Part shown: positions 12,175 through 58,476 of the stretch, piece by piece
How positions within the stretch are numbered: the stretch's first letter is position 1
Layout: every line of letters starts with the position of its first letter
Source: an uncultured Spirochaetales bacterium
GTDB lineage: Bacteria; Spirochaetota; Spirochaetia; SPDA01; CAZSGZ01
Assembly (NCBI GenBank): GCA_964440465.1
Contig: CAYTSI010000005.1
Location: forward strand, 151-64,150
Direction of reading: 5' to 3'
Length of the DNA stretch: 64,000 nt
The notes under the pieces: model-generated
What the model was told of the DNA's origin: nothing
Seen by the model: only the letters and a program-made list of their open reading frames with translations
The model's database searches: none
Program-made: the position numbers and the translations under genes

Positions 12175-14651
12175 TCATCCGGGACCTGCACATTCATACC
12201 TTCGGGGACTTTCAGGATGTCCGGCTGCAGTTTGCAGACGGGTGTAATATTGTCCTTGGTGAAAATGAAGCGGGTAAGTCAACGGTTTTCAATGTAATCG
12301 ATCATCTGCTGTTTACTCCCGTCAAGCTGACGAAGCGTGAAATGGAAAAAAGCTTGAATCGATGGTTTCCCGTTGGAGGCGGGGATACGTTGAGCGCGGA
12401 ATTATCTGCCGAACTCGGGGACAGAGCTGTTCGGTACTTCAAGTGCTGGGGCGGGAATCCGGAAGGAACAATTCGATTTTCACCGGGAGGGACCTATTCG
12501 GGCGATGATGCCCTCGCTGCGGAAACGGAAAAATTGTGGGGATACTCTCCGGAGACGGTGCGGCAGGTTTGCCTGCTGCGGCAGAGTACCCTCGCGGATA
12601 CGCTGCCTTCCTACCAGAATTCGAAGGAGGTATTGCAGTCTCTTACCGACATCCTGCAAAATTCTTTAATAGAAGGCGGCGGTATTTCCACCTCCGGTTT
12701 TATTGAAACTCTCCGGGACCGGTACAGCTTGTTTTTTTCAAGATGGGACAGAGACCGGAACTATCCGGAAAAAAACAGAGGGATTGAAAATCCATGGTCG
12801 GTAAACGTGGGTACGGTTTTGAAATGGTGGTATGAAATGAAGCGGGCCGAGTTAGAGGTCCGGCGGGTAGAGCAGCTGGAAGACTCAATATGTTTACTGC
12901 AGAGCAGCCAAAAAGAAAAAAAGAAGGAAACGGCAGCTCTCGAGTCGTTTCTTTCTGCCTTTGAGACAGTCTACAACACTGCCGGAGACAGAAAAAGCCT
13001 GGAATTGGAACTGCGGGAAATTATCGGTACGATGGAGCGGATAAAGAAAGACAGTCAATCCTGGGGACGGGGGAGGGATGGTCTTGAACAGGCGCTCCGG
13101 GAGCGGAAAGAAGGGAACGAAGAACTTGGAAAGCTCCGCGGGCGGATCGAAAGCAGGGATGAAGTAACGGCGAAACGGAAACGGTTCGAAAAATATCGTC
13201 GGCTGCTGGAGGTGAAAACAAAACTCGACGCCCTGGAGGCAAAGCTCAGAGAACAGCCGGCAATACCGGAAAAGGATTTGCAGGCACTCCGTGAATCAAG
13301 GTTGGCAATTCGGGAAAGTGAGGTGAAACTGCAGTCCGGAACACTCTTTGCACAGCTGACCGCGAAGAAAAATATCAGTTTTTCCTATACTCCCGGATTG
13401 GGCACTGAAAAGCGGCGTGACCTTATGGCAGGGAATTCGCTTGAAATAACGGCGGAAGGGAAAATTCGGCTGAGCCACGAAGACTGGGAGCTGGATGTTT
13501 ATTCGGGAAACGAAGATTACGAAACCGTCAAAAAGGAGCTGGAGGCAGGCAAAAAAGAGTTTAACGCTCTCTGTGAGAAGTACGGTGTTGTTTCCGTCGA
13601 GGAAGGAGAAGCACAGCGGAAGGTTTATACTGATCTGGAAGGGGAAACGGCACGGGCGCGGAAACAATTTTCCGAGGAACGCGGAGAGGACTCTTTTGAA
13701 GCCCTGAAGAAGGAAGTCGAAAGTTTTGGGGCCCTTCCTGAGGAAACCGACAGTACCGAGCTGGGAAGAGAATACGGTTCTCTCAATGAACGGCTTGCCG
13801 CGCTTGAAAAAACAATACAGGAACATCGGGAACGGTTGTCGTATTTGGAAGAGACATATGGGACGGAGGAAAAGCTTCTGGACATGCTCGCGGACCTCCG
13901 CGGCCGGCAGCGGGACTTGGAGAAACAAGTGGCTGCTCTTCCGGAAATTCCTGACCCCTTCGAAACGGCGGAAGAATTTCTTGAGGCATACAGGGAAAAA
14001 CAAAGAAAAAGGGAGACGCTCCGTCAGGAAATATTTGAGTTAGATAAGGCGGCCGCCCTTGCGGTAAAAGACCTCCCGGACATCTCCCTCGAGGAGCTCG
14101 AAGCGGACGCTGAAGCCGCGCGGCGGCGTTTTCAATCCGCGCTTTCGGAGGGGGAGACAATCGGCCGGATTCTCGAGACAGCGCTGCGGATCCAAAAAGA
14201 AATTCAGGAGAACCCCTATACCGCCTTTATGGAGGCGGCGGAAGCAAACCTTAAAAAAATGACCGGGCAGAGGCTGCAGTATAAAAGCAGATCAGGCGGG
14301 GGGGACGGTCAGGCAGCGGCCCCTTTTCACGGTGATGTTAGAAACAGCCGGGGAGAAATTCTGGCGTACGGACAGCTTTCAGGCGGAACGAAAGACGCGG
14401 TTTCTCTAGCCGTCCGGCTGGCAATGGCGGAGTATTATCTGAAAAATAAAGCAGGGTTTCTCCTCTTTGATGATCCCCTAGTGGAAATGGACCCGCGGCG
14501 CCAGAAGGCCGCCGCCGAACTGCTTTCCGAAACCGCCCGGCGCTACCAGTCGATAATCTTTACCTGTCATCCCCACATGCGCGATTTATTCCCGAATGCC
14601 AATGTAATTGAGCTGCATCGGGACGGGGAACGGAGGCGTGTTAAATTTTAA
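12171..14651 (+). CDS. SbcC/Rad50-like AAA ATPase with a long coiled-coil insert (YhaN type). It is translationally coupled to the upstream nuclease by an ATGA overlap.
   Basis: It has Walker A (GENEAGKST), a long E/K/R/L-rich coiled-coil centre, the ABC signature LSGGTKDA, Walker B/D-loop (LLFDDPLVEMD) and an H-loop (FTCH). No CxxC zinc hook was seen. Confidence 0.8.
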   Translation: MIIRDLHIHTFGDFQDVRLQFADGCNIVLGENEAGKSTVFNVIDHLLFTPVKLTKREMEKSLNRWFPVGGGDTLSAELSAELGDRAVRYFKCWGGNPEGTIRFSPGGTYSGDDALAAETEKLWGYSPETVRQVCLLRQSTLADTLPSYQNSKEVLQSLTDILQNSLIEGGGISTSGFIETLRDRYSLFFSRWDRDRNYPEKNRGIENPWSVNVGTVLKWWYEMKRAELEVRRVEQLEDSICLLQSSQKEKKKETAALESFLSAFETVYNTAGDRKSLELELREIIGTMERIKKDSQSWGRGRDGLEQALRERKEGNEELGKLRGRIESRDEVTAKRKRFEKYRRLLEVKTKLDALEAKLREQPAIPEKDLQALRESRLAIRESEVKLQSGTLFAQLTAKKNISFSYTPGLGTEKRRDLMAGNSLEITAEGKIRLSHEDWELDVYSGNEDYETVKKELEAGKKEFNALCEKYGVVSVEEGEAQRKVYTDLEGETARARKQFSEERGEDSFEALKKEVESFGALPEETDSTELGREYGSLNERLAALEKTIQEHRERLSYLEETYGTEEKLLDMLADLRGRQRDLEKQVAALPEIPDPFETAEEFLEAYREKQRKRETLRQEIFELDKAAALAVKDLPDISLEELEADAEAARRRFQSALSEGETIGRILETALRIQKEIQENPYTAFMEAAEANLKKMTGQRLQYKSRSGGGDGQAAAPFHGDVRNSRGEILAYGQLSGGTKDAVSLAVRLAMAEYYLKNKAGFLLFDDPLVEMDPRRQKAAAELLSETARRYQSIIFTCHPHMRDLFPNANVIELHRDGERRRVKF

Positions 14652-14667
14652 GGCACCCGCGAAAGAA

Positions 14668-15645
14668 TTATGAATCGAAGCTGTATTCCCCGCGCCATGA
14701 AACAATGTATTCCCAGACATTTCCCCGCGGCGGCCGTACCGATCCTCCTGTGCCGGGGTCGTACGTCCACGTTCCCGTAATCCCCTTTTCCGCGGCGGCG
14801 GCTTCGAAATGATACATTGCAATTCCCGTATCGATCCGCTGTAGGTCAATGTGCTTCCTGAAAAGCCCGTAAGCTCTGTCCCTTTGCAGAAAAAAATGCA
14901 CCAGGTTCTCCGCTTTCCCGCTGCCCCGGAAGGTGATTATCAGCCGCCATGGCTGCTTGTTTGATGCCGAGGGAGCAAGTCGCACGCATTCGAGAATGAT
15001 CTTTGTTTTTTCGGAAACTTCACTGGGTTGCAGAGGTTTGAGGGGGACAGAGCTGCAGGTAACGAAAAACAGTTTTTCCCACGGTTTCCGGCGTTTCGAT
15101 CCCGCGGCAAATCTGATGAAGCGTGCAGCCGGCCGCCTACGTTCCGCCGGATATCCCACAGGTGTTATTGCAGGGATAATTTCGTTGTCTGGAAGATTGA
15201 GGTATTCTGAAAGTTTCCCGCGCTGAAAAGTTCCCCCGAGCCAGCAGGTCCCGAGGCCGAGATTCGTCAACTGCAGGATAATATGTTCAAAGGTGTAGCC
15301 GAGGTCCGTCATTTTCTGAGGGACAGAGCTGCCTTTTGAGGAATTTTCTATGTTTCGCTTCCGATTTGCAGTGTCCGCCGCGACTGATTTTTCTGTAACT
15401 GTAACAATGCCCGCGGCAAAAAGGCGTGCCCCTCGTATAAAACCGTAAGTACCAAGTGAGCTCCGCCACTCCTCCGGCATACCGGATAGGTCAATCAGCG
15501 TAAACCGGATGCGCGATCCGAACGGCGGGACAGCACCGGGATGTACGATGAGTTTTTCAATTTTATTTACCAGTTCCGGTTCGCAATGCCGCCCAGAATA
15601 AGAGCGGATCGACCTTCTCCGAAGTATTGTATCGTGTATCGTCAT
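14668..15645 (-). CDS. Nitroreductase-family flavoprotein of 325 aa. The internal Met at 15645 is preferred over 15723.
   Basis: RRRSIRSY is near the N-terminus, and GLGTCWLGG and APSASNKQPWRL are nitroreductase signatures. Confidence 0.75.
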   Translation of the reverse strand: MTIHDTILRRRSIRSYSGRHCEPELVNKIEKLIVHPGAVPPFGSRIRFTLIDLSGMPEEWRSSLGTYGFIRGARLFAAGIVTVTEKSVAADTANRKRNIENSSKGSSVPQKMTDLGYTFEHIILQLTNLGLGTCWLGGTFQRGKLSEYLNLPDNEIIPAITPVGYPAERRRPAARFIRFAAGSKRRKPWEKLFFVTCSSVPLKPLQPSEVSEKTKIILECVRLAPSASNKQPWRLIITFRGSGKAENLVHFFLQRDRAYGLFRKHIDLQRIDTGIAMYHFEAAAAEKGITGTWTYDPGTGGSVRPPRGNVWEYIVSWRGEYSFDS

Positions 15646-15836
15646 CGTCTCTTGTCGAGGGTAATTATATTCACAGGTAGGAGAATACTCTAATTGGGAG
15701 TCTACTTCTATGGGCGACCTCAAGTTTTCCCTTACTGGTCTGGAGATGTAAAGCGTTTAGGAAAATCAGCTACTTACTCTTAATGCTCCGTCCCTCATCA
15801 ACAGCACCGGTTATCGCTCACCGGTATTCGGCATTA

Positions 15837-16343
15837 TCAGCGTAACTTCATCCAAACCCGCCGCAGGAAATCATTAGGCGGCCGCTCTAATATGTCCAGC
15901 TGTCCCTTATAGATCAAACTCATGCCGCTGTATTTATAGTCTGTCGCGTATTGGACCATTTTGGCGCGAACTGGGTTATTGGCTATATAAACAAATGTGG
16001 CAAGATATTGCAGGAAACTGTGAATTATTTTGCTTTTAAACCGCTCGTTCCATACATGGCCGGTTAGCCCAAATGTTTTATTATACTGCATCGCGAAAAC
16101 GCTTAAAACCCATTGCATAATGGCCGATAAGCTCTCATTATTCAGCGGTTTTATGATGAAATGGTAATGGTTTCCCATTATACAGAAGTTTTTGATAGTG
16201 AAGCGGTATTTTTTTTTTGCCCTTCTGATGACTTCCATAAACATTTCTTGTATTTCCGGTGTTTTGAATATTACTTCTTTGCGGTTCACTCTGGAAACTA
16301 CGTGATAACTTGCCCCATACTGTAATTGCCTTGGTTTTCTCAT
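15837..16343 (-). mobile_element. REP-associated tyrosine transposase (RayT / IS200-like Y1 HUH transposase). It is a single ORF with no obvious inverted repeats.
   Basis: YHVVSRVNRKEVIF ... GNHYHFIIKP (HuH motif) ... NNPVRAKMVQYATDYKYSG (the catalytic Tyr region) closely matches the RayT/TnpA_REP consensus. The gene and its flanks are low in GC. Confidence 0.75.
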
Positions 16344-16464
16344 TCTTTACCCCCTCGAATAGTCGGTATTTTTTTTTGCCTATACTTAATAAGAAGGGGT
16401 AAATAGGATTGCTGATTTTAAAATTCGGTCATTTTTTTTATTTTTTTTGCTCTGTCCCCATCTT

Positions 16465-17661
16465 TTAGCTTTTTAACCGCTTGAGAAGTTCCCGGGCGAC
16501 AGCTGTCTCAACTTTATCCTCTGTCCCTAGCCCGCATACAGTACGGACCATGTGTTCATGTCCGTTTGCGGCCAGTTCTTCAGCGAACTGCTTGTCCCCT
16601 GGGAAAAGAATGCCGTTTTCGTCGGATCCGCGGAATGCAAACCCGGCGGCGGCTGCCTCGGCAATTGCGCTATAGGGAAGCCCGTGGGTTTCGGCTAAAA
16701 GCATTGCTCCGACCAGCCTATCGTCTTTGGCAAGTTTCCGTTGAAGGTCCCGGCCGACCCGGAAAATGGTATCACCCAATGCTTTATTTCGGAACCTGTT
16801 TAGAAGGTCGCCAATGTGTTCTCGGAGCGCGTCCAGAGAGAGATCGGCCGGGTACGCGGCGTGAAGGGCTTCTCCTGACTGTTCCATTGCTTTTTGTACT
16901 TTATCCTTAATTTCCGGAAGCTCAAGGGGTTCCCAGATGTAGGTAAACCCGGGTTCCTTACGATATCCGATATACGCCGCCGCCGCGTGACCCATATTAT
17001 GAATGAACAGTTTCCTGTCTACGTAGGCGGTTATATTTTCCACTGCTTTTATCTCGGGGAAATCCGGCACTTCTCGGACAAATCCGTGTTTATCAAGGAT
17101 AAGCGTATTGTATTCTTCCGAGAATACCCACAGTGGATCTTCGTTTTTGTCTTCCTCCCGCATAATCGGTACCATTTTCCCAATACTCGTTTCAACCAGG
17201 CCCACTGTTTTCTGAATGGGGAAGCCGGGAGGTAGATATTTCTGCAGTTCCCTTCTAAAAAAAGCAGCTCCGTCCCTCATATTTTCAGCAATAATGATGT
17301 CGATTTTTGCCGCTTCCGTCCGCATTTTTATCCCTTCGGCAATAACGGGGATTATATGCGGTAAGACCCCCTTCCCAACAGACGTGGCAATGTACGCCGC
17401 TTTGGAAATTTCTTCCGCTACTGCAGCTCTGTCCCTGCCGTCGACGGCTCGGACACCGGTAACGAAGACCTCTTCATCTTCCTGATTGTTCCGTTTAATA
17501 ATGACACGATAGGAGTTCCTGCTGTTCAACTCCCGTATCAGCGTTTCATCAATATCGACAAAGACAACCTCATAACCGTTGCCTGCAAACACCTTCCCGA
17601 TAAATGATCTGCCGATATTTCCGGCACCGAACTGCACTAGTTTTTTCTGTTTTTCCTGCAT
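16465..17661 (-). CDS. mtlD: Mannitol-1-phosphate 5-dehydrogenase / mannitol dehydrogenase family.
   Basis: The N-terminal FGAGNIGRSF Rossmann motif and overall similarity to the MtlD family, including NMGHAAAAYIG. Confidence 0.85.
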   Translation of the reverse strand: MQEKQKKLVQFGAGNIGRSFIGKVFAGNGYEVVFVDIDETLIRELNSRNSYRVIIKRNNQEDEEVFVTGVRAVDGRDRAAVAEEISKAAYIATSVGKGVLPHIIPVIAEGIKMRTEAAKIDIIIAENMRDGAAFFRRELQKYLPPGFPIQKTVGLVETSIGKMVPIMREEDKNEDPLWVFSEEYNTLILDKHGFVREVPDFPEIKAVENITAYVDRKLFIHNMGHAAAAYIGYRKEPGFTYIWEPLELPEIKDKVQKAMEQSGEALHAAYPADLSLDALREHIGDLLNRFRNKALGDTIFRVGRDLQRKLAKDDRLVGAMLLAETHGLPYSAIAEAAAAGFAFRGSDENGILFPGDKQFAEELAANGHEHMVRTVCGLGTEDKVETAVARELLKRLKS

Positions 17662-17794
17662 ACCCTATTATAAAGTGTTCGTGTACTCCGATACAAGCCG
17701 AGCGGGAGAGCCTGTCCTTGCCTCCGAAGGCCTTCAGTGCTCTGTCCCCGGAATTGCCGGAATTGCGGAATTGAACTGTCTGCCATTGCACTAG

Positions 17795-18769
17795 ATGATC
17801 ATATTTGAAATACTAAAGAAAAGTGAGGCTGATGTGAAACCAGTAATAACTGCATATGGCGAGGCCCTGTGGGACCTTCTGCCGGAAGGCCCGGTCTTAG
17901 GCGGGGCATTGCTGAATTTTACCTACCGGGCAAAGAGCTTAGGCGCTGACGCGGAATGTATCAGCAGGCTCGGTATGGACGATTTGGGGGACAGAGCTGC
18001 CGGAAAAATGAACGACTTGGGGTTTGATATGAATTATATTCAGAGGGACAGTGCTCACTCTACCGGGACGGTCCCAGTCAGTTTTGATGAACAGAAAAAT
18101 CCCAGCTATGTCATTACCCCGGAGGTTGCGTTTGATTTTATTGAAGACACGGAAAATCTTGAGGCCAGAATACAACAATCCGACTGCCTCTGCTTCGGGA
18201 GCCTTATTCAGCGCGCTCCGGTTTCGCGGGAAACCCTCTACAAACTGATCGAGCAATTCGGGGGCAGGTACCTGCTTTTCGATATCAATTTACGAAAAGA
18301 CTGTTATTCCTCCAAAACGGTGCGCACGTCCCTGGAAAAATGTCATATTGCGAAGCTCAATGAGGACGAACTGCATGAGCTTAAAGAATTAATTGGAATT
18401 TCCGGGAATTCAGTCCGGAAACTGACGCAATCCTGTGTTGAAACCTACGGTTTGACCTATTGTCTCGTAACTTTAGGAGACAAGGGGCTTTTTGCCGCGG
18501 CTGATTCGGGGACAGAGGTGTATGTTCCGGGTATTGTCGTCGACCTTGTCGACCCGATTGGTGCCGGGGACGCCTGTACGGCAGGGTTTATTTTTTCTCT
18601 CCTGCAGGACAGTCCTCTCGATTACGCGTGCAAATATGCCAATGCAATCGGTGCGGCGGTCGCGGAAACTTCCGGGGCCACCGGTTTTGTATCGAAAGAG
18701 CGGATCGAAGCGGTCCTCCGCGGTGGGGACTATTCGGAGCCTCATCCAGAATTTCGGAGGAAGTACTGA
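17795..18769 (+). CDS. PfkB-family carbohydrate kinase, ribokinase/fructokinase-like.
   Basis: DPIGAGDACTAGFIFSL is the PfkB signature 2. An N-terminal GG dipeptide motif region is also present. Confidence 0.8.
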   Translation: MIIFEILKKSEADVKPVITAYGEALWDLLPEGPVLGGALLNFTYRAKSLGADAECISRLGMDDLGDRAAGKMNDLGFDMNYIQRDSAHSTGTVPVSFDEQKNPSYVITPEVAFDFIEDTENLEARIQQSDCLCFGSLIQRAPVSRETLYKLIEQFGGRYLLFDINLRKDCYSSKTVRTSLEKCHIAKLNEDELHELKELIGISGNSVRKLTQSCVETYGLTYCLVTLGDKGLFAAADSGTEVYVPGIVVDLVDPIGAGDACTAGFIFSLLQDSPLDYACKYANAIGAAVAETSGATGFVSKERIEAVLRGGDYSEPHPEFRRKY

Positions 18770-18822
18770 ACTTTTAGTTGATTTTTTTGCGCTTTACTAT
18801 TATTATATCTCGAAACAACTAA

Positions 18823-19008
<186 letters not shown>

Positions 19009-19046
19009 CACTTTTACGTAAGCAGTGTTAAGCTGCATTTTGTATG

Positions 19047-19090
19047 AAAGCTGCTGCCGGCCGTTGGTGCCGACGGCAGCTTTTTGTTTG
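19047..19090 (+). terminator. Rho-independent terminator downstream of the ferredoxin gene.
   Basis: The hairpin is gctgccg-N13-cggcagc, followed immediately by TTTTTGTTTG. Confidence 0.6.
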
Positions 19091-19119
19091 CCCGGCGAAG
19101 CCGGCAAACCTGCCGCGGT

Positions 19120-19130
19120 GGGGACAGAGC
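19120..19130 (+). repeat. Intergenic copy of the hyper-abundant motif GGGGACAGAGC.
   Basis: An exact match to the core 10-mer that is seen 19 times in the window. Confidence 0.7.
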
Positions 19131-19156
19131 ATGCCGATCGATGCCTAATTAATTCG

Positions 19157-19185
19157 TTGACAGGGGACAGAGCCGAAGGTAAACT
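19157..19185 (+). promoter_or_regulatory. Sigma70 consensus promoter for the downstream secreted-protein gene: TTGACA, a 17-bp spacer, then TAAACT. The spacer is itself a copy of the GGGGACAGAGC motif (19163-19173).
   Basis: Read directly as gTTGACAggggacagagccgaaggTAAACT. It is followed by an aaggag RBS and a GTG start at 19204. Confidence 0.5.
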
Positions 19186-50000: not shown

Positions 50001-52820
50001 CGGAAAGCGGTAACGGAACTGAGCTTGTACGCCACCGGCGGCGGGTGGGTCCGCTGGGGGTCCGGAGACGCGGACATGCTGGAGCTGAAACCGGACAAGC
50101 AGCTGTATAAGCCGGGAGATACGGCGAAAATCCTGCTGCAGTCTCCCATTCCCGAAGGGGACTACCTGATAACCGTCGAGCGGGAGGGAATTTTCAATGA
50201 GAGAAAAATCAGCGTGGAAGGATCGGCGAAGCTGATCGAGGTCCCGATTACGGAGGACTATCTGCCGGTTGTGTATGTCAGCGTTTCCTCCTATACGGTG
50301 AGGACCGGCAAACCGGAGCATACCTACTTCGAACCCGATTTAGACAAGCCGAAGGGACTCTACGGCGTTACGCCGCTGCGGGTTGAAACGGCGGCGAAAT
50401 TGATCGATATCAGTATCGAACCGGCGGCACCTGCCTATTTGCCGGGGGCTGAGGCGGAAGTGGTCCTTACCGCGACACAAAACGGCAGGCCCGTGGAAAA
50501 CGCGGAGCTTACCTTTTTGGCAGTCGACCGCGGGGTTTTAGACCTCATCAACTACCATATTACGGACCCGCTTGCATTTTTCTACAGTGAAGGACGGTTT
50601 CCCCTGGCCGTGGAGGGGGCGGATTCCCGGTCCCTCTTAATCGACCCGGTTACCTACGACGTGCCCGACCTGGCAGGGGGCGACGGGAAAGACGGAGAAG
50701 ACGAGGGAGGCGCCGGTATGGGGATGAAAAGGCGGGAGGATTTTAACCCTACCGCGGTTTTCGAGCCGTTTCTCAGTACCGATGAAGAGGGCAGAGTAAC
50801 GGTGCGCTTTACCCTTCCCGATACCCTTACAACGTACCGCTTAACCGCCGTTGCGGTACGGGACAACAGCTTCGGTATTCAGGAAAAAGAGCTGAAGGTC
50901 CAGAATCCCATCAACGTAAAAACCGCCTTTCCGCGGCGTCTCCGCTACCGGGACACCGCCGTCGGCAGCGTGCTGCTTACCAATTTAGACGGCAAAGAGC
51001 ACGAAGTTACCCTGAATATCGAATCGGACATTCTCGGTATCGGAGGAAAAAACTCCAAGACCGTTGCCATACCCGCGGCGTCCACCTTGGAAGTGCCGTT
51101 TCAGCTCTTAGCTGTTTCGCCGGGTACGGCGGAAATTACGGTCACCACGAAGTCCGAAGTCCTGGAAGAACAGCTTGTGGAAACACTAATTGTTGAAAAG
51201 CCCTACATTTTCGAAACATTTGCCACTATCGGGCAGGCGGAGGACTCCGCGGGAGAGGGGATTGTACTTCCTTCCTATGTCGACGACGATGAGGGGAGCC
51301 TTACCATTAACCTTTCCGGTTCCCGGGCCGCCTCGTTAGGAGAGGCAATCGACTATGTAATCGGATATCCGTACGGCTGCATGGAGCAGCGGGCGAGCAA
51401 ACTCTTGCCGCTGGTGCTTTTAGAGGATTATGTCGACGATTTCGCTTTGGAAAATCCCGTCGGGGACATCAGGGGAACGGTGCAGGCCGACCTCGACTTG
51501 TGGGGAGCGTATCAGCGTTCCGACGGGGGGTTCCCCTTCTGGCCGGTCCGGGAAGGTGTATATTCATCCTACTATGCCACTGTCCGTGCCGGACACCTCC
51601 TGGCCCTCGCACGGGACCGGGGCTACACGATTCCGGACGGCCTCAGTGTTCCCGGGCTGCTCGACTATCTGGCCAATCCCCCCTCCTCCGCGCGGGGGAA
51701 CAATTACCTCATGCTCTACGGGCTCTATGTCCGCTCCCTCCTCGGTGCCGGAGTTTCCGGGGAGGCGGCCCGCTATTTTGCCAGGGGTGATGAAATTGGT
51801 ATTTCAGGATACGGATTTTTAGGGCTTATTTACCTGGACCAAAACCAGGACAATCAGGCGGAGCAGTGCCTGAACAGAATTAAGCAGTTTGTCCGGCCCG
51901 GTACCCGGTCCGTTGATCTAACGGAAACATACGAAAGCTCCTCGTTTTATAATTCCCAGGTTGAGCAGCTGGCGCTGTTTCTCATGCTTTACAGCCGGAT
52001 CGACCCCGAAAGCGATATGGTAACCAGGATTACCAACACCCTCATGGACAGACAGAAGGGGGGAATCTGGAAAAATACCGCCGATACAAACTGGGCCATT
52101 CAGGCCTTTACCTCATTACTGCAAGCCGAAGGCGGGGGAGGGCCCGATTTTGCCGCGGAGGTGACAATCGACGGTGAGACAATCGCGGAAGCTGAAATCG
52201 ATTCGATCGCGGAAATTTTCAACCGGAAGCTGCCCCTGTCGGGAAGCGTGCTTACGGGATTCGACCGGGACACCATGTATCCCCTTACATTTACAAAAGA
52301 GGGGGCGGGCCGCCTCTACTATACCGCGAGTCTGCGTTACGCAATTCCTTCGGAAATAAGCTACCCCCGGGACGAGGGGATAGGGATTGTCTATGAAATC
52401 AGCACCGTAGACGGGCAGAAGGTGGAGGGTGCTGCCCTTACCGTCGGTAAAACGTACCGTCTGAAAGCGGTAGTTTCCAGCCACCGCGGCCGGAGCTACG
52501 TAGCTGTCCGTCTGCCCGTGCCGTCGGGGGCGGAAATCCTCGATGCCGCTTTCGTTACCACACCGAAGTACGACGAATTTCAGGACCCGGACGTCGACTG
52601 GTCCCGGTATGTTCCATTCGGGTCGAAAATATTCGACAACGAAGTGCGCTATTTCTGGGACGAGTTCCCCCGGGGGCGGCAGGAGGTGAGTTTTCTCTTC
52701 CGGACGACCAGCGGCGGTGTTTTTCCCACGCCTCCGGCAACGGCGGAATGTATGTACGAACCGGAAATTTTCGGCCGGACCGGGGGGAGGATCTTTATTA
52801 TCAAACGGGATGAGGAGTAG
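47040..52820 (+). CDS. Bacterial alpha-2-macroglobulin lipoprotein of 1926 aa with an apparently intact thioester motif.
   Basis: The lipobox is VFTGC. MG-domain repeats are present. GYPYGCMEQRAS is the thioester CxEQ motif. Adjacency to pbpC is the classic bacterial A2M arrangement. Confidence 0.85.
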   Translation: MKRTVMLIALLLGSILLVFTGCTREEAPGAKPATEENTEEMSESQKIQRQLYQDAAINEDLASYDITYYEPDSIQTVAAPVKESDEPFQIVDYGPVEELPPEVVYPSMYVVFSQPVVPLRQLGEPMRSSDIMSIDPPIQGTFRWYGTRLLSFDADEKALPQRRYTVSISDTARSLGGKELTGEKSFSFHTEYLSIRDFFTGTAEGDYSLDDVPPDEAKTIHIVFSHKVNLNVIKNYLSVEAGGRGYNFTIARPDDPENRLSEEIKERTAVLHVEGLFPEDTDVTVTVRKGARSEADFIGTPVNITRSFHTLRPFRFVDYDTCSWSFPRSRQGEANPVYLKFSHSVKAEDLTGKVRTNPAMEITEENVEVYRDRVRINNLPVAPESVYTLFLDAGITDVYGRKLQRSEQVRVEVPPAERYAYFPNTGPRMLEAAFPKRIMWEHQNVFEGLWKADTVSDPYGTFSHEELRPYNFGEIERNKRYFEVYNFKDYLNSEGYGWVGFSWNFGKRNNDGTMPTWTKRDLRLQVTDLGLTVRHGYNKIITLVTSLATGEAVEGAEVSITRKQAVKKSTETDADGLAVFELEEGEYFEYFGVPGRTYENELRIRVKYGNDKIEFKPNYSHDTWRSNIYNTAAPTQIGTPNMVTYLFTDRKLYKPGETVTFRGIDRNQQYGKYTPFSGGYDIAVRESRYRGREITRFRGETTGSGGLYGSFTLPEDAEPGWYEIAYSRDEKTVRELFQVAHFRRLLFSVDMSSPDITHYQGDTVSFTVASEYLAGGALSRGNYEVYWSKRPVTYTPPGDDWKDYRFGPEGYDSRHSLETAEGSLPPTGTINVKQKTSPEGIEGRAYVYEAEARISDVSNQLVAKREGVTVHPAAFYIGARVKDAAGSWYTFVEKGKEMECEVRLVTPEGGLVKDGEKISLTGELYKIEWKLAQQQGVYDTINSRWERVETKIADEEITLSSGKGTARFTPGESGSYYIKFTAEDAMERKAVTELSLYATGGGWVRWGSGDADMLELKPDKQLYKPGDTAKILLQSPIPEGDYLITVEREGIFNERKISVEGSAKLIEVPITEDYLPVVYVSVSSYTVRTGKPEHTYFEPDLDKPKGLYGVTPLRVETAAKLIDISIEPAAPAYLPGAEAEVVLTATQNGRPVENAELTFLAVDRGVLDLINYHITDPLAFFYSEGRFPLAVEGADSRSLLIDPVTYDVPDLAGGDGKDGEDEGGAGMGMKRREDFNPTAVFEPFLSTDEEGRVTVRFTLPDTLTTYRLTAVAVRDNSFGIQEKELKVQNPINVKTAFPRRLRYRDTAVGSVLLTNLDGKEHEVTLNIESDILGIGGKNSKTVAIPAASTLEVPFQLLAVSPGTAEITVTTKSEVLEEQLVETLIVEKPYIFETFATIGQAEDSAGEGIVLPSYVDDDEGSLTINLSGSRAASLGEAIDYVIGYPYGCMEQRASKLLPLVLLEDYVDDFALENPVGDIRGTVQADLDLWGAYQRSDGGFPFWPVREGVYSSYYATVRAGHLLALARDRGYTIPDGLSVPGLLDYLANPPSSARGNNYLMLYGLYVRSLLGAGVSGEAARYFARGDEIGISGYGFLGLIYLDQNQDNQAEQCLNRIKQFVRPGTRSVDLTETYESSSFYNSQVEQLALFLMLYSRIDPESDMVTRITNTLMDRQKGGIWKNTADTNWAIQAFTSLLQAEGGGGPDFAAEVTIDGETIAEAEIDSIAEIFNRKLPLSGSVLTGFDRDTMYPLTFTKEGAGRLYYTASLRYAIPSEISYPRDEGIGIVYEISTVDGQKVEGAALTVGKTYRLKAVVSSHRGRSYVAVRLPVPSGAEILDAAFVTTPKYDEFQDPDVDWSRYVPFGSKIFDNEVRYFWDEFPRGRQEVSFLFRTTSGGVFPTPPATAECMYEPEIFGRTGGRIFIIKRDEE

Positions 52821-52862: not shown

Positions 52863-53118
52863 TAAGTGACAAGGCCCCTCGCCCGCGGAGGGTTCCCGGC
52901 CCCGTCCTGCTACGTCTTCTGGCTGACGGTATGAAAAGTATGCGGATAGTCCTTCCCGCTCACGTGGCAGTGGACCAACCGCGTAGAAACCCTCCACCGA
53001 ACACAGCAGCGCGTCTGCAGCGGAATTACACCGCAATTCCGTATAGCAGGACGGTTAGAAATCACCAACTGTCGGCAGTATACTATTCATCCGCCGGGAA
53101 TGCAAGCAAAAATCCGGC

Positions 53119-56229: not shown

Positions 56230-58476
56230 TTGAAAAGAAACGGTAACTATATACCGGTAATTGTCGCGGGAATAATTATTTTCCTGTTTGTTACCGGAGA
56301 AATTACACTGCGGCATCTCCCCTTTCCCGAACTTGAGGCGTTTCAGAACAGGGCGTACAGTACAATAGTAACCGACAGAAACGGCACAATTCTCAGAATT
56401 CTTCCTCTCGAAGGAGGATTGAGGCGGGAATACGTTCCCCTCGAAGAACTGCGCCCGGAGATTGTCCGGATTTTTATCGAAAGCGAAGACAAGCGGTTCT
56501 CTTTTCACCGCGGTGTGGACGGTTTTGCCGTGCTGCGCGGTTTTTTTCAAAACAGACGAGCGGGACGGACGGTTTCGGGGGCGTCCACCATCTCCATGCA
56601 GCTGGCGGGTCTTGTCCGCCCGCGAAAGCAGACCGTCGGGGGCAAGGTCCTTGAAGCCTGGGACGCCCTTCGCCTGGAGGCAAAACTCTCGAAACGGGAA
56701 ATCCTCGAGCTGTGGCTAAACTCTCTCCCCTTCGGCAGGCAGGCGGAGGGTGTCGGGAGCGGCAGCAGGGCCTACTTCAATATATCCGCCGCGGACCTCT
56801 CAATTCCGGAGGCGGCCCTTCTTGCCGTTGTTCCGAGGCATCCGAAAAAGTACAGCCCCGTCGACAATCCAGAGGGCGCGTATGAAGGCGCGCTCCGCAA
56901 TGCCGGGAGGCTTCGTACGGACATTTCCGCACAGGAGCTGCGGAAGGCCGCCCGGGCCGCGGAGCCGGGAAATTTTATCTACCACGCGCCCCATTTTCTT
57001 CGTCAAATAGGGACAGAGCTCGGCGGCAAGCAGGGCGGCAGGGTAACAACCACATTGGATCTGGAACTTCAGCAGCATTTTCACCGTCTTTTGTCCACCT
57101 ATCAGCAGCGGTACGCCCAAAGCCGCATTACCAGCGCCGCCGGAATGCTCATCGACAATCATACGGGCGAAGTCCTTGCCTACGTCGGTTCACTCGACTT
57201 TTTCTCCGGCAGAGCGGGGGAGCAGCTGGACGGGGTAACCGTCCCGCGGCAGCCCGGGTCCTGTCTTAAACCCTTTCTTTACGCGGCGGCGCTGGAGGAC
57301 GGGTGGTATCCGAACACACTGCTTCCCGACGTCCCGCTCAATTTCGGCGGGGGCGAGGTATATGTGCCTTCGAATTTCACAAATTCTTTTTCCGGTCCCG
57401 TCAGGCTTCGGGTTGCCCTCGGGTCGTCTCTGAACGTACCGGCGGTCTATCTGTTGGATGAGATCGGGTTGGAACGGTTCGGGGAGCTGCTGCGGGCGGC
57501 GGGTTTTCACGTCGGAGCGGGCGCGCTTGAGAAGGCGGGCCTCGGCGCCGCGTTGGGCAATCTGGATGTCTCCCTCCTGGAACTGACCCGGGGCTTCGCC
57601 CTTTTCCCCCGGCGTGGTGTGCCCCTGGAGCTTTCATGGACACTCCCCGAAGTTTTCGAAGGGCCCTCCCCCGCGGGACGGGCCGTTTCCGAATACACCG
57701 CCGATATTATCTGCGACATCCTCTCGGACCCGGCGGCGAGGGCCCGGGGGTTCGGGTACAATTCCGCTTTTACCCTTCCCTTTCCCGCCATGTTTAAAAC
57801 CGGGACAACCGATCAGTTTCAGCACATCTGGGCCCTTGCCGCGACGCCGGATTATACCGTGGGCATATGGATGGGAAACAACACCGGGGAAACGGTAATC
57901 GGCCGGACCGGTTCCTCCGTCCCCGCGCGGATAGCGGCTGAAGTGCTTACCTTCGCGCGGAAGGGGAGGGCGGAATTCCCGGTCCCGGCGGGGGCGGTGC
58001 CGGTGGAGATCTGCACAGTATCCGGGCAGCGGGGGACGGAGCTCTGTCCCTCCGTTGTTACCGAATACCTGCCGGCGGCCGGCGGGGAAGGGGCTGTACC
58101 CGGTCCCTGTACATTTCATATACTGCGAAACGGTACGGTAACAACCGAGTATCCGGAAAAATATCATGCATGGCTGCGGGAGCTGGGCCGGTCGGGGGGA
58201 TTTTCCTTCTCCGGCGGAGAAGGCCTTGAAATTATTCACCCCCGCGGCGGAGCGGTATTTTACTATGACCCGACAGTTTCCGCCGGAGTCCAGGCGCTGC
58301 GGGTCGAGGCAGCTGCCGGCAGGCCCGGGGCCTGCACACTCTATGTAAACGGCGAAAGGGCGGGTACTGTTTTCCATCCCCCCTATGTATGGTTTTTGCC
58401 GCTTCAGCGGGGAGCGTGGGAATTGACCGTATCGAATACCGGTTCCGAGGCGACGGTGCGCGTCGAAGTCCGCTAA
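56230..58476 (+). CDS. pbpC: Penicillin-binding protein 1C, with a GT51 transglycosylase domain, a transpeptidase domain and a C-terminal PBP1C domain.
   Basis: It has an N-terminal TM segment, the GT51 motifs EDKRFSFHRGVD and RPRKQTVGGKV, an SxxK-type transpeptidase region, and a C-terminal domain. It is paired with A2M. Confidence 0.85.
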   Translation: MKRNGNYIPVIVAGIIIFLFVTGEITLRHLPFPELEAFQNRAYSTIVTDRNGTILRILPLEGGLRREYVPLEELRPEIVRIFIESEDKRFSFHRGVDGFAVLRGFFQNRRAGRTVSGASTISMQLAGLVRPRKQTVGGKVLEAWDALRLEAKLSKREILELWLNSLPFGRQAEGVGSGSRAYFNISAADLSIPEAALLAVVPRHPKKYSPVDNPEGAYEGALRNAGRLRTDISAQELRKAARAAEPGNFIYHAPHFLRQIGTELGGKQGGRVTTTLDLELQQHFHRLLSTYQQRYAQSRITSAAGMLIDNHTGEVLAYVGSLDFFSGRAGEQLDGVTVPRQPGSCLKPFLYAAALEDGWYPNTLLPDVPLNFGGGEVYVPSNFTNSFSGPVRLRVALGSSLNVPAVYLLDEIGLERFGELLRAAGFHVGAGALEKAGLGAALGNLDVSLLELTRGFALFPRRGVPLELSWTLPEVFEGPSPAGRAVSEYTADIICDILSDPAARARGFGYNSAFTLPFPAMFKTGTTDQFQHIWALAATPDYTVGIWMGNNTGETVIGRTGSSVPARIAAEVLTFARKGRAEFPVPAGAVPVEICTVSGQRGTELCPSVVTEYLPAAGGEGAVPGPCTFHILRNGTVTTEYPEKYHAWLRELGRSGGFSFSGGEGLEIIHPRGGAVFYYDPTVSAGVQALRVEAAAGRPGACTLYVNGERAGTVFHPPYVWFLPLQRGAWELTVSNTGSEATVRVEVR

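Follow-up and report, generated by a model that had tools for sequence, protein, structure and literature searches.

The window, i.e. the whole 64-kb stretch of DNA analysed here, contains a single rayT gene surrounded by a cloud of copies of a short linear word, GGGACAGAGC. The cloud is about 5 kb wide on each side of rayT, lies mostly in neighbouring genes and occurs only where rayT is present, and each RayT lineage has its own spelling of the word, with concerted shifts at orthologous copies. Because the pairing of rayT with the word recurs at about 80 related loci, we regard it as a REP/RAYT-like system in which the repeat is a short linear word with no hairpin. Judging from sequence comparisons, RayT is quite probably a host-maintained ssDNA nuclease-ligase of the RayT/TIRYT type (HUH plus one catalytic tyrosine), with GGGAC[A/G]GAG[C/G] as its predicted cognate site. 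A preliminary description of this DNA had cautiously suggested an atypical REP-like system served by RayT, which the comparison of 80 loci supports. The motif excess, the RayT identity and the hotspot that it reported also held up, whereas its copy count, some of its coordinates and its claims about orientation did not.

The rayT gene (15837..16343, minus strand) encodes a 168-residue Y1 HUH nuclease/transposase of the RayT (TnpA_REP) class, consisting of the Y1 core only. Its hit to NF047646 has 80.2 bits (cut-off 80) and that to PF01797 is at 2e-15, in agreement with the earlier assignment, and the HUH residues H59/H61 and the Y119-x3-N-P signature are invariant among 26 homologues. The best PDB match of its AF2 model (pLDDT 91) is 4ER8, E. 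coli TnpA_REP, with a TM-score of 0.71. A tblastn search over the window returned no other Y1 homologue, so the gene is indeed single there. It is syntenic in three species (the window and loci L004 and L164) and is under purifying selection, with dN/dS of 0.05-0.09 against L004 and L164 and saturated dS.

The window holds 22 exact copies of GGGACAGAGC, where 19 had been counted previously, against 0.13 expected; none of 100 shuffles matched this number. Ten exact copies fall at 12418-19173, all within 3.7 kb of rayT (scan-statistic P = 0.0018; binomial P = 7e-5 in a test centred on rayT), just as the preliminary description had placed ten in 12.4-19.2 kb. The density beside rayT is 2.0/kb, and clustering elsewhere in the window is weak (0.64 vs 0.56/kb). 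Copies continue at about 0.5/kb out to 42 kb from rayT, and the locality of the cloud is thus not absolute. As had been observed, most copies lie inside ORFs (18 of 22) and the motif is not a hairpin-forming REP: neither a hairpin nor a palindrome was found with the word. The exact 10-mer is spread over five frame/strand classes, and its orientation in the window is mixed (13:9).

The copies reported near rayT are real, though their positions were off by 0-2 nt. An exact copy in an SbcC-like gene (12418..12427, +, sense, LGDRAV) is kept in L004. The nitroreductase gene carries three exact copies, one sense (14873..14882, -, QRDRAY) and two antisense (15044..15053, +, and 15320..15329, +, reading ..SSVP..). 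Of the copies inverted with respect to the upstream one, that at 15320..15329 is the closest, 508 nt past the rayT stop. Further exact copies are found in mtlD (17426..17435, -, sense, GRDRAA), in the mtlD/pfkB gap (17739..17748, -), in pfkB (17988..17997, +, sense, LGDRAA; its L164 orthologue has G at motif position 6) and, as an intergenic direct pair spaced 43 nt apart, at 19121..19173 (+). Four copies with one mismatch belong to the same family: GGGACGGAGC in direct orientation 42 nt past the rayT stop codon (15785..15794, -), at a position not conserved among homologues; GGGACAGAGG at the mtlD 3' end (16518..16527, -), which reads GGGACAGAGC in L004 and GGGACGGAGC in L164; GGGACGGAGC in mtlD (17267..17276, -, MRDGAA); and GGGACAGAGG in pfkB (18509..18518, +). 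The claim that the three copies below rayT are all in plus orientation overlooked the one at 14873-14882 (-). Nor is a flip of orientation across rayT a general rule: in the 80 loci, orientation is fixed for the proximal upstream copy alone. In the window the flip largely tracks the strand of the host genes, and over all loci sense copies outnumber antisense ones by 2:1.

The motif-encoded residues occupy ungapped columns of solved homologues and orthologues; the alignment of those at 17267..17276 with solved MtlD structures and orthologues, for example, is gap-free. At the ungapped columns of the mtlD GRDRAA copy, orthologues from loci without rayT read GRDEEQ or GKDKEK. Between the window and L004, copies have been gained and lost through single substitutions. 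Copies thus arise in place through point substitution. It is extremely improbable that amino-acid or codon usage (G-D-R-A, G-T-E-L/E), or a peculiar composition of certain genes, produced the excess as a by-product. In favour of such an origin, the G-dialect 9-mer shows a strong sense bias in the window (15:2), where GTE or GDG is often what it encodes. However, copies are three times denser in intergenic than in coding DNA, the exact 10-mer is not confined to one frame or strand, and orthologues from loci without rayT encode similar peptides without the word.

The comparison set comprised 80 homologous loci, each covering 10 kb on either side of the homologue, with genes called by a crude longest-ORF rule; all are from Spirochaetota MAGs except two, both from one Margulisiibacteriota MAG. 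In most of them the commonest 9-mer is a dialect of GGGAC[A/G]GAG[C/G]. The preliminary description had asked whether motif density falls off with distance from rayT, and it does, from 0.83/kb near the gene to 0.20/kb at 6-10 kb (Wilcoxon P = 2e-4; 19 loci vs 2). This decay is unexplained by GC content, is also seen with intragenic copies alone and is stronger for the cognate dialect. Regions of equal density without rayT, which had been named as evidence against a link, were not found. Syntenic rayT-bearing mtlD loci (the window, L004 and L164) have 0.7-2 copies/kb, whereas L165-L172, mtlD loci of full or partial synteny that lack rayT, have 0-1 copies in 6-21 kb. Among the latter, L171 and L172, of the same synteny, have none, and L166 and L169 have none in 21 kb each. 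The MAGs of these last two carry rayT and a cloud on another contig (L005 and L039, respectively; the pairing of contigs rests on MAG binning). The baseline is 7 copies in 883 kb of FtsH-anchored loci (0.008/kb), which also argues against codon usage.

These densities bear on the possibility that the word serves the host genome as a signal independent of RayT (DUS/USS-like uptake, Chi- or KOPS-like), born by substitution everywhere, and that rayT chanced on a rich patch. The word does have uptake-like traits, being about 10-12 nt long, non-palindromic, mostly intragenic in several frames, substitution-born and split into lineage dialects, and its polarity is over-dispersed among loci with a weak correlation with GC skew (rho 0.37). 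However, a host signal should not vanish from syntenic loci without rayT and from 21-kb loci of two MAGs that have rayT clouds elsewhere, nor decay over about 5 kb, and the mixed orientation in the window is unlike that of Chi or KOPS. Together with the fixed upstream copy and the clade-specific dialects described below, this largely refutes the idea, which we consider very improbable.

The conserved proximal copy in the window, GGGGACAGAGC-A (16449..16459, -), lies in gene orientation 105-106 nt upstream of the rayT ATG and is orthologous to L004:9903 and L164:11250. It starts a few nucleotides past the mtlD stop codon and is therefore likely the left boundary of the rayT unit. A copy in gene orientation 30-220 nt upstream of rayT is present in 61 of 74 loci (3.6 expected), even where the word is otherwise rare (L012, L050 and L064); its usual place is some 45-130 nt ahead of the start codon. 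Homologues flanked by unrelated classical REPs, likewise named as contrary evidence, were not found: these 61 have the word or a dialect 1-2 bases away. Within 500 nt upstream of rayT, 95 of 104 copies in the 80 loci are in gene orientation; farther away both orientations occur on both sides. An inverted downstream partner is found in only 13-14 of 69 loci (about 20%).

Between this copy and the start codon there is a conserved box, AATTTTAAAATCAGCAATCC (16406..16425, -; TTTGAAGCAGCAG in most homologues), recognised by eye when the upstream regions of about 60 loci were anchored and compared. This box is a possible -35 region for rayT transcription; promoter prediction gave no consensus sigma-70 promoter here. 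The inverted repeat noted at 16346-16403 is present and longer than the 8 bp claimed, with 11 nt per arm. It is predicted to form a 5'-UTR hairpin (16346..16403, -) in which the SD region GAGGGGGUAAA pairs with an upstream anti-SD arm, UUUACCCCUUC; the 11-bp stem (arms 16346-16356 and 16393-16403) is common to the centroid and minimum-free-energy structures (z = -1.8). In L004, the same place is occupied by another pair, CUCCU/AGGAG.

Could rayT instead be an active IS200-like insertion sequence, with the upstream copy as its target and the cloud as a target-rich place? IS608, for instance, inserts 3' of TTAC. The upstream copy is just beyond the 5' end of the rayT unit, mtlD and the nitroreductase gene, between which the unit lies, directly adjoin each other in L172, and L034 and L038 are 92.5% identical with homology beginning exactly at the word. 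The GC content of rayT and its flanks is low, as had been noted (33-46% vs 50-57%). However, the position of rayT is constant in three species despite saturated dS, and its low dN/dS speaks for constraint. Paralogues within a MAG are just 65-80% identical, with homology restricted to the coding sequence, and neither subterminal hairpins nor longer terminal repeats turned up. As loci without rayT lack copies, no target-rich patch existed before insertion, and the lineage-specific gains and the concerted dialect switch postdate it. We consider an active element of this kind unlikely.

The dialects, GGGAC[A/G]GAG[C/G], cluster by RayT protein clade. In 42 of 49 loci the dialect of the upstream copy is the one that predominates in its flanks, and motif position 6 matches in all 49. 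Dialects can differ even between contigs of one MAG (L017 and L018 vs L060), and an A-to-G difference is concerted at all three orthologous copies common to the window and L164. RayT residues 99/100 (Y-D vs G/A/N-E/C) covary with motif position 6, with the exception of L164, which shares the window's residues yet has the other dialect. These residues are 4-5 positions N-terminal to those aligning with E100/H101 of E. coli TnpA_REP, which have been linked to GTAG recognition (PMC6006769).

Recombination of rayT with several kilobases of flanks from a word-dense donor, the gradient reflecting import-tract lengths, would account for a cloud of about 5 kb on each side and for contigs of a single MAG having different dialects, and in the window the word is likewise common at a distance from rayT. 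However, the flanks are ordinary syntenic housekeeping-type genes that have diverged from L004 to a similar extent close to rayT and farther away, copies change by single substitutions within lineages, and no uniformly word-dense donor-type genome was seen. Such a donor would still need a RayT-linked process, and we find this origin improbable.

We return to RayT as an enzyme acting on the word, which we infer it binds and cleaves. Among exact direct repeats, 11 have their left boundary at motif position +6, compared with 0-3 at nearby positions. Short tandem duplications, which are a further source of copies, begin exactly at GGGACR|GAGS, and this junction is the putative nick site. RayT would nick ssDNA there and remain joined to the 5' end; the free 3'-OH would be extended briefly and the displaced end rejoined, giving the observed duplications. 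The local enrichment of substitutions towards the word might arise if RayT acts mainly close to its own gene, as transposases often do. Alternatively, selection on a haplotype of rayT plus sites could be effective only over recombination-tract distances. Within the rayT coding sequence itself the motif is nearly absent, with 2 copies over 42 kb of such sequence.

Among known systems, IS200/IS605 elements (IS608, ISDra2, IS200) share the Y1 HUH fold (TM about 0.5) and the presence of a specific short sequence right next to the unit's 5' end, and IS200 has an SD-sequestering 5'-UTR hairpin like the one predicted here. Unlike them, rayT has no subterminal hairpins and no near-identical copies, and its position is stable across species. 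The DUS of Neisseria and the USS of Pasteurellaceae resemble the present word in being short, non-palindromic, mostly intragenic and substitution-born, with lineage dialects. In contrast to them, it is tied to one gene and is local rather than genome-wide, being absent from other loci of the same MAGs.

The closest systems are REP/RAYT and the little-studied TIRYT class. TIRYTs are RAYT-like genes with flanking repeats (TIRtrons) that have a GGGGWSAS core (Di Nocera et al. 2013, PMC3733652), and mostly belong to TnpA_Y1 subclass 2.1 (Quentin et al. 2018, PMC6006769). As in our loci, they combine a RAYT-like gene that lacks REP hairpins with a flanking repeat at a near-constant distance from it (GGGGACAG fits the core), and some genomes have "moderately abundant" repeat families elsewhere. 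However, the described subclass 2.1 TIRYTs are long and have a C-terminal HTH domain, which the short RayT lacks, the G dialect GGGGACGG deviates from the core at position 7, and a clear inverted partner is found here in just a fifth or so of the loci. Intragenic clouds, a distance gradient, dialect co-variation or a GGGACR|GAGS junction are not described in these two papers.

REP/RAYT systems (REPtrons; E. coli TnpA_REP/YafM, 4ER8; Pseudomonas REPIN-RAYT) likewise have a single-domain Y1 HUH protein with the Y-x3-NP signature, 4ER8 being the closest match in both sequence and fold. Their genes, too, are low-copy, syntenic, under purifying selection and flanked by their own over-represented short sequence, with a separate sequence variant per protein lineage (PMC6006769, PMC5581495). 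Here, in contrast, the repeat is linear, 10-12 nt long and free of a palindrome or a GTAG or CGTC tag, and its copies are substitution-born rather than inserted, lie in ORFs in 70% of cases and are concentrated within about 5 kb of the gene, and they can be absent elsewhere in the genome. To our knowledge, every characterised Y1 enzyme of this family reads a hairpin, which counts against our reading of the word as the RayT site. The lack of a hairpin, the mostly intragenic copies and the local gradient set the present system apart from both REP/RAYT and TIRYT: it appears to work like REP-RAYT, yet with a repeat that is a short linear word, local and intragenic.

The open reading frame at 15837-16343 (minus strand) is, as judged from its sequence and predicted fold, a RayT-type Y1 HUH protein. 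Y1_Tnp (PF01797) is the sole Pfam domain of its 168-residue product, which passes the 'REP-associated tyrosine transposase' model NF047646 only marginally (80.2 bits, cut-off 80) and stays below the threshold of the IS200 model NF033573 (32.7 against 55). The catalytic signature H59-Y-H61 and Y119-IAN-N123-P124 is invariant in an alignment of 26 homologues; class 2 Y1 HUH RAYT proteins are recognized by an HUH motif plus one catalytic Tyr that forms part of Y-x3-N-P (PMC6006769). The AlphaFold model (pLDDT 91) is best matched by E. coli TnpA_REP (4ER8; TM 0.71 over 160 columns), with TM values of about 0.5 for the TnpA proteins of ISDra2, IS608 and IS200, and a profile search against PDB sequences returned 4ER8 as the sole significant solved relative. 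Based on the NF047646 match, the conserved signature and 4ER8 as the nearest relative in both sequence and fold, we class RayT with TnpA_REP. The gene was correctly described earlier as the only one of its type in the window.

The word GGGACAGAGC occurs 22 times in the 64 kb of the window, compared with 0.13 copies expected from dinucleotide-preserving shuffles; the preliminary description had counted 19. In an alignment of the window copies the word is preceded by a purine and followed by T or A, but there are neither conserved flanks nor a hairpin, in agreement with the claim that the word is not palindromic. As also claimed, most copies (18 of 22) are inside ORFs; these copies occupy several reading frames and can be sense or antisense to the gene. 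Ten exact copies within 3.7 kb of rayT bear out the proposed hotspot (binomial P = 7e-5; scan-statistic P = 0.0018), and the density next to the gene reaches 2.0 per kb. Away from rayT clustering is slight (0.64 per kb around a copy vs 0.56 per kb overall), and copies continue at about 0.5 per kb out to 42 kb from the gene.

Several other features of the window are of note. Secondary clusters of the word, with no rayT nearby, are found at 33-37 kb and 42-43.3 kb, and the 12 kb between 44000 and 56000, which include the anaerobic ribonucleotide reductase gene and a 1927-aa ORF, hold one copy. Just downstream of this ORF, which ends at 52820, there is a cobalamin riboswitch (RF00174, 50.7 bits; 52892-53065, minus strand). 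The only hairpin-capable arrangement of the word is in the PBP1 gene at 58033-58050, where two overlapping inverted copies form the near-perfect palindrome GGGACGGAGCTCTGTCCC. The G-dialect spelling GGGACGGAGG (13860, 28331, 30335, 34575, 36382, 39296, 42412, 43126, 54152 and 57915) is evenly spread and nearly always in sense orientation (GTEE-type codons), in contrast to the rayT-centred GGGACAGAGC; these copies may go with a different RayT paralogue that is encoded elsewhere in the genome, or they may result from codon usage. Two microcompartment vertex genes (EutN/CcmL) adjoin DeoC and RpiB (18.5-20.5 kb in the comparison loci L001-L003, about 5.8-7.8 kb in the window), a few kb from the rayT locus, and are unrelated to the present finding.

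RayT homologues are abundant in Spirochaetales MAGs, and the locus described here is also present in microbial-mat metagenomes. A RayT alignment scan with one genome per species gave 80 loci, all from Spirochaetota MAGs except two, both from one Margulisiibacteriota MAG. The latter (L063 and L072) encode close RayT homologues and have GGGGACGGAGG copies in their flanks, and another close homologue outside Spirochaetota is found in P0012, named as a Lokiarchaeota MAG; either horizontal transfer or a binning error would explain these three. The 9-mer that occurs most often is, at most loci, the word or a dialect of it that differs by one or two bases, GGGAC[A/G]GAG[C/G]. Literature searches returned only primers and unrelated matches for the word and its dialects, and nothing specific for RayT in spirochaetes.

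A word copy in gene orientation 30-220 nt before the start codon, which we call the proximal copy, is present in 61 of the 74 loci with enough upstream sequence for this count, whereas the local density predicts 3.6. Its distance from the gene peaks at 40-120 nt (70 loci), and it is kept also at loci with few other copies of the word (L012, L050, L064). In the window this copy is GGGGACAG, 105-106 nt upstream of rayT, and in the homologous locus L164 it is again found 106 nt before the ATG. The nearest inverted copies in the window are 508 and 784 nt downstream of rayT, both in the nitroreductase gene. Over the homologous loci, an inverted partner within 450 nt downstream is found in 13-14 of 69. 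The orientation pattern of the window mostly tracks the strand of the host gene, and a minus-strand copy at 14873 had been overlooked when all copies below rayT were given as plus. As a general rule the flip of motif orientation across the gene fails: farther out than the proximal copy, each side of rayT has copies in either orientation.

The proximal copy has the majority dialect of the other copies at its locus in 42 of 49 cases and agrees with them at motif position 6 in 49 of 49. Dialects group by RayT protein clade, and a MAG with two RayT lineages on separate contigs (L017 and L018 vs L060) uses a different dialect for each. Among the homologues, the base at motif position 6 goes together with the residues at protein positions 99/100, which are Y-D in 40-41 of 42 G-dialect proteins and G, A or N with E or C in three A-dialect clades. 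They sit 4-5 residues N-terminal to the alignment counterparts of E100/H101 of E. coli TnpA_REP, which are tied to GTAG recognition (PMC6006769). Residues 99/100 as the sole determinant of the dialect turned out to be too simple, as L164 breaks the pattern.

Twenty-four loci extend a full 10 kb to either side of rayT, and in these the word density is 0.83 per kb at 0.3-3.3 kb from the gene and 0.20 per kb at 6-10 kb, confirming the fall-off that the preliminary description had suggested looking for. The decay is seen in 19 loci and reversed in two (Wilcoxon P = 2e-4). GC content does not account for it; it persists for intragenic copies alone and is steeper for the cognate dialect. As to replication-strand polarity, the word correlates weakly with GC skew, and sense bias confounds this correlation.

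We used MtlD orthologues to obtain loci with and without rayT. The syntenic loci that contain rayT (the window, L004 and L164) have 0.7-2 copies of the word per kb, and those of the same synteny that lack it (L171 and L172) have none. In L172 mtlD overlaps the nitroreductase gene, and hence this locus is an empty site. Two loci, L166 and L169, lack rayT locally but share a MAG with the rayT loci L005 and L039, respectively, the assignment of contigs to one genome relying on MAG binning. Both have 0 copies in 21 kb, whereas the clouds of copies around rayT at L005 and L039 have 1.0 and 0.4 per kb. The other mtlD loci without rayT (L165, L167, L168 and L170) hold 0-1 copies. RayT-less regions of equal word density, which had been named as evidence against a link to rayT, were not found among these loci. 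The 7 copies in 883 kb of FtsH-anchored metagenome loci (0.008 per kb) serve as a general baseline only, because the best matches there are 48-66% identical and their taxonomy is unknown. A host word of the uptake, Chi or KOPS type is very improbable, as it is contradicted by both the rayT-less loci and the fixed upstream copy. Import of the flanks from a word-rich donor is also unlikely, and it would still require a process linked to RayT.

The position of rayT is syntenic in the three species represented by the window, L004 and L164, between which synonymous sites are near saturation, and its dN/dS of 0.05-0.09 is below that of mtlD. Paralogues inside one MAG are 65-80% identical, and their homology does not reach beyond a short leader and the coding sequence. 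Around rayT loci neither subterminal hairpins nor terminal repeats of greater length were found, and the sole recurrent inverted match between the two flanks is the word itself; a 9-nt inverted match in the window flanks (15762-15770 and 16411-16419) is at chance level. An active IS that targets the word is an unlikely explanation given the synteny and purifying selection of rayT, its old paralogues and the lack of a pre-existing target patch. Low copy number, vertical inheritance and housekeeping-like evolution, which are expected of a RAYT, were all found for rayT.

Two features of rayT that were reported earlier, low GC content and an inverted repeat in the leader, are real. The leader hairpin of the window (16346-16403, minus strand) has an 11-bp stem, UUUACCCCUUC / GAGGGGGUAAA, in which the Shine-Dalgarno sequence is paired. 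At the equivalent place L004 (9960-10000) has a different complementary pair, CUCCU/AGGAG, and the fold z-scores are modest (-1.8 in the window and -1.7 in L004). In IS200, translation is occluded by leader structure, and by analogy the paired Shine-Dalgarno sequence suggests translational occlusion of rayT. Upstream of rayT, prediction gave neither a consensus promoter nor a terminator, and no Rfam family was found at the locus. Between the motif and the start codon there is a box, TTTGAAGCAGCAG (AAAATCAGCAATCC in the window, 16406-16425, minus strand), that is conserved in most of L004-L083, at about 35-45 nt before the ATG. The ATG of many loci is so near the box that the mRNA leader would be very short or absent. 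In L014 the box recurs as an inverted copy of 16 nt, 154 nt downstream of the gene. The word is nearly missing from rayT coding sequences (2 copies in about 42 kb, or 0.05 per kb, over all loci), with 1.2-1.35 copies per kb in the first kb of flanking ORFs; this scarcity may reflect avoidance of self-cleavage.

All loci together contain 749 copies, 70% of them in ORFs, and the word is three times as dense between genes as in coding sequence, as far as the crude gene calls in the loci go. The residues that the motif encodes in MtlD and PfkB fall into ungapped columns in alignments with solved homologues and orthologues (for example, GRDRAA against GRDEEQ and GKDKEK). The window and L004 share 91% nucleotide identity, and at orthologous positions single substitutions account for the copies gained or lost between them. 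The more distant L164 shares three copies, one in pfkB, one at the mtlD 3' end and the one upstream of rayT, and at motif position 6 all three have changed in concert, L164 having G where the window and L004 have A. Codon usage as the source of the excess is hardly credible, as both the higher intergenic density and the orthologue comparison go against it.

The tail of the word together with the next 8-13 nt is often tandemly duplicated. A GAG-anchored test for sharp boundaries was uninformative, as control GAGS sites showed the same distribution of leftward extension, and we therefore adopted an unbiased scan of repeat boundaries around 732 copies. The left boundary of exact direct repeats falls at motif position +6 in 11 cases, compared with 0-3 at neighbouring positions. 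As the duplications start there, GGGACR|GAGS can be read as a putative nick or joining site. Tandem arrays of the whole motif, with periods of 19-39 nt and up to 7 copies, represent a second mode of local amplification (L031 13-90; L073 3959-4005; L057 2278-2470; L045 3327-3400; L034 7655-7700).

In the mechanism that we propose, the HUH enzyme would become 5'-linked after nicking at GGGACR|GAGS, and a short extension from the 3'-OH followed by rejoining of the displaced end would give duplications of the observed kind. We tentatively consider a further reading possible, with the balance somewhat against it, in which the genes around rayT have the recognition word 'written' into them by RayT itself, as a domesticated or semi-selfish HUH nuclease. 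The cloud would then be produced and kept uniform by a local, RayT-dependent process that converts near-cognate sequences by substitution and short duplication. To our knowledge, such sequence drive has not been described for REP/RAYT or other bacterial transposase relatives.

RAYT-like genes, both widespread and conserved, are regarded as domesticated transposases; we know of no benefit that they confer. The Spirochaetota-centred RayT clade makes a cognate sequence visible, a linear word of 10-12 nt with lineage spellings that covary with the protein, a candidate nick site and an unexpected distribution that is local and largely intragenic. The spellings, such as GGGGACAGAGCA and the G dialect, provide concrete oligonucleotides for biochemistry, and the mtlD loci a natural comparison with and without rayT. 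The question raised is how a nuclease-ligase can enrich its own site through point substitution in neighbouring genes. REP-less RAYTs elsewhere merit re-examination by short k-mers, coding regions included, and the self-writing reading, if true, would give a cognate substrate to REP-less RAYT/TIRYT classes without known function.

Of the known systems, IS200/IS605 elements differ in having near-identical multiple copies with subterminal hairpin ends, which were not found at rayT, and DUS/USS words in their even genome-wide spread, whereas the word decays with distance and is absent from L166 and L169. REP/RAYT systems are similar in that the protein is of the same class, copy number is low, a cognate repeat flanks the gene and each protein lineage has a repeat family of its own (PMC5581495, PMC6006769). 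However, their repeats are tagged extragenic hairpins, whereas here the repeat is a linear word, and no palindromic REP/REPIN with a GTAG-type tag flanks rayT. Di Nocera et al. described RAYT-like 'TIRYT' genes with inverted repeats at a constant distance that share GGGGWSAS and belong to families moderately abundant in some genomes (PMC3733652). The fixed distance from the gene is found here too, and GGGGACAG fits GGGGWSAS, but the G dialect departs from this core at one position. According to Quentin et al., most TIRYTs belong to subclass 2.1, long proteins with a C-terminal HTH domain for which no REP-like sequence was found (PMC6006769), whereas the RayT described here is short and consists of the core domain only. 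These two papers (PMC3733652, PMC6006769), the only ones that we found to mention TIRYTs, report no intragenic clouds, distance gradient, dialect covariation or junction site. Given the shared class and core on the one hand, and the short protein and the features unreported for TIRYTs on the other, we file the system as a variant within the REP/RAYT-TIRYT kind.
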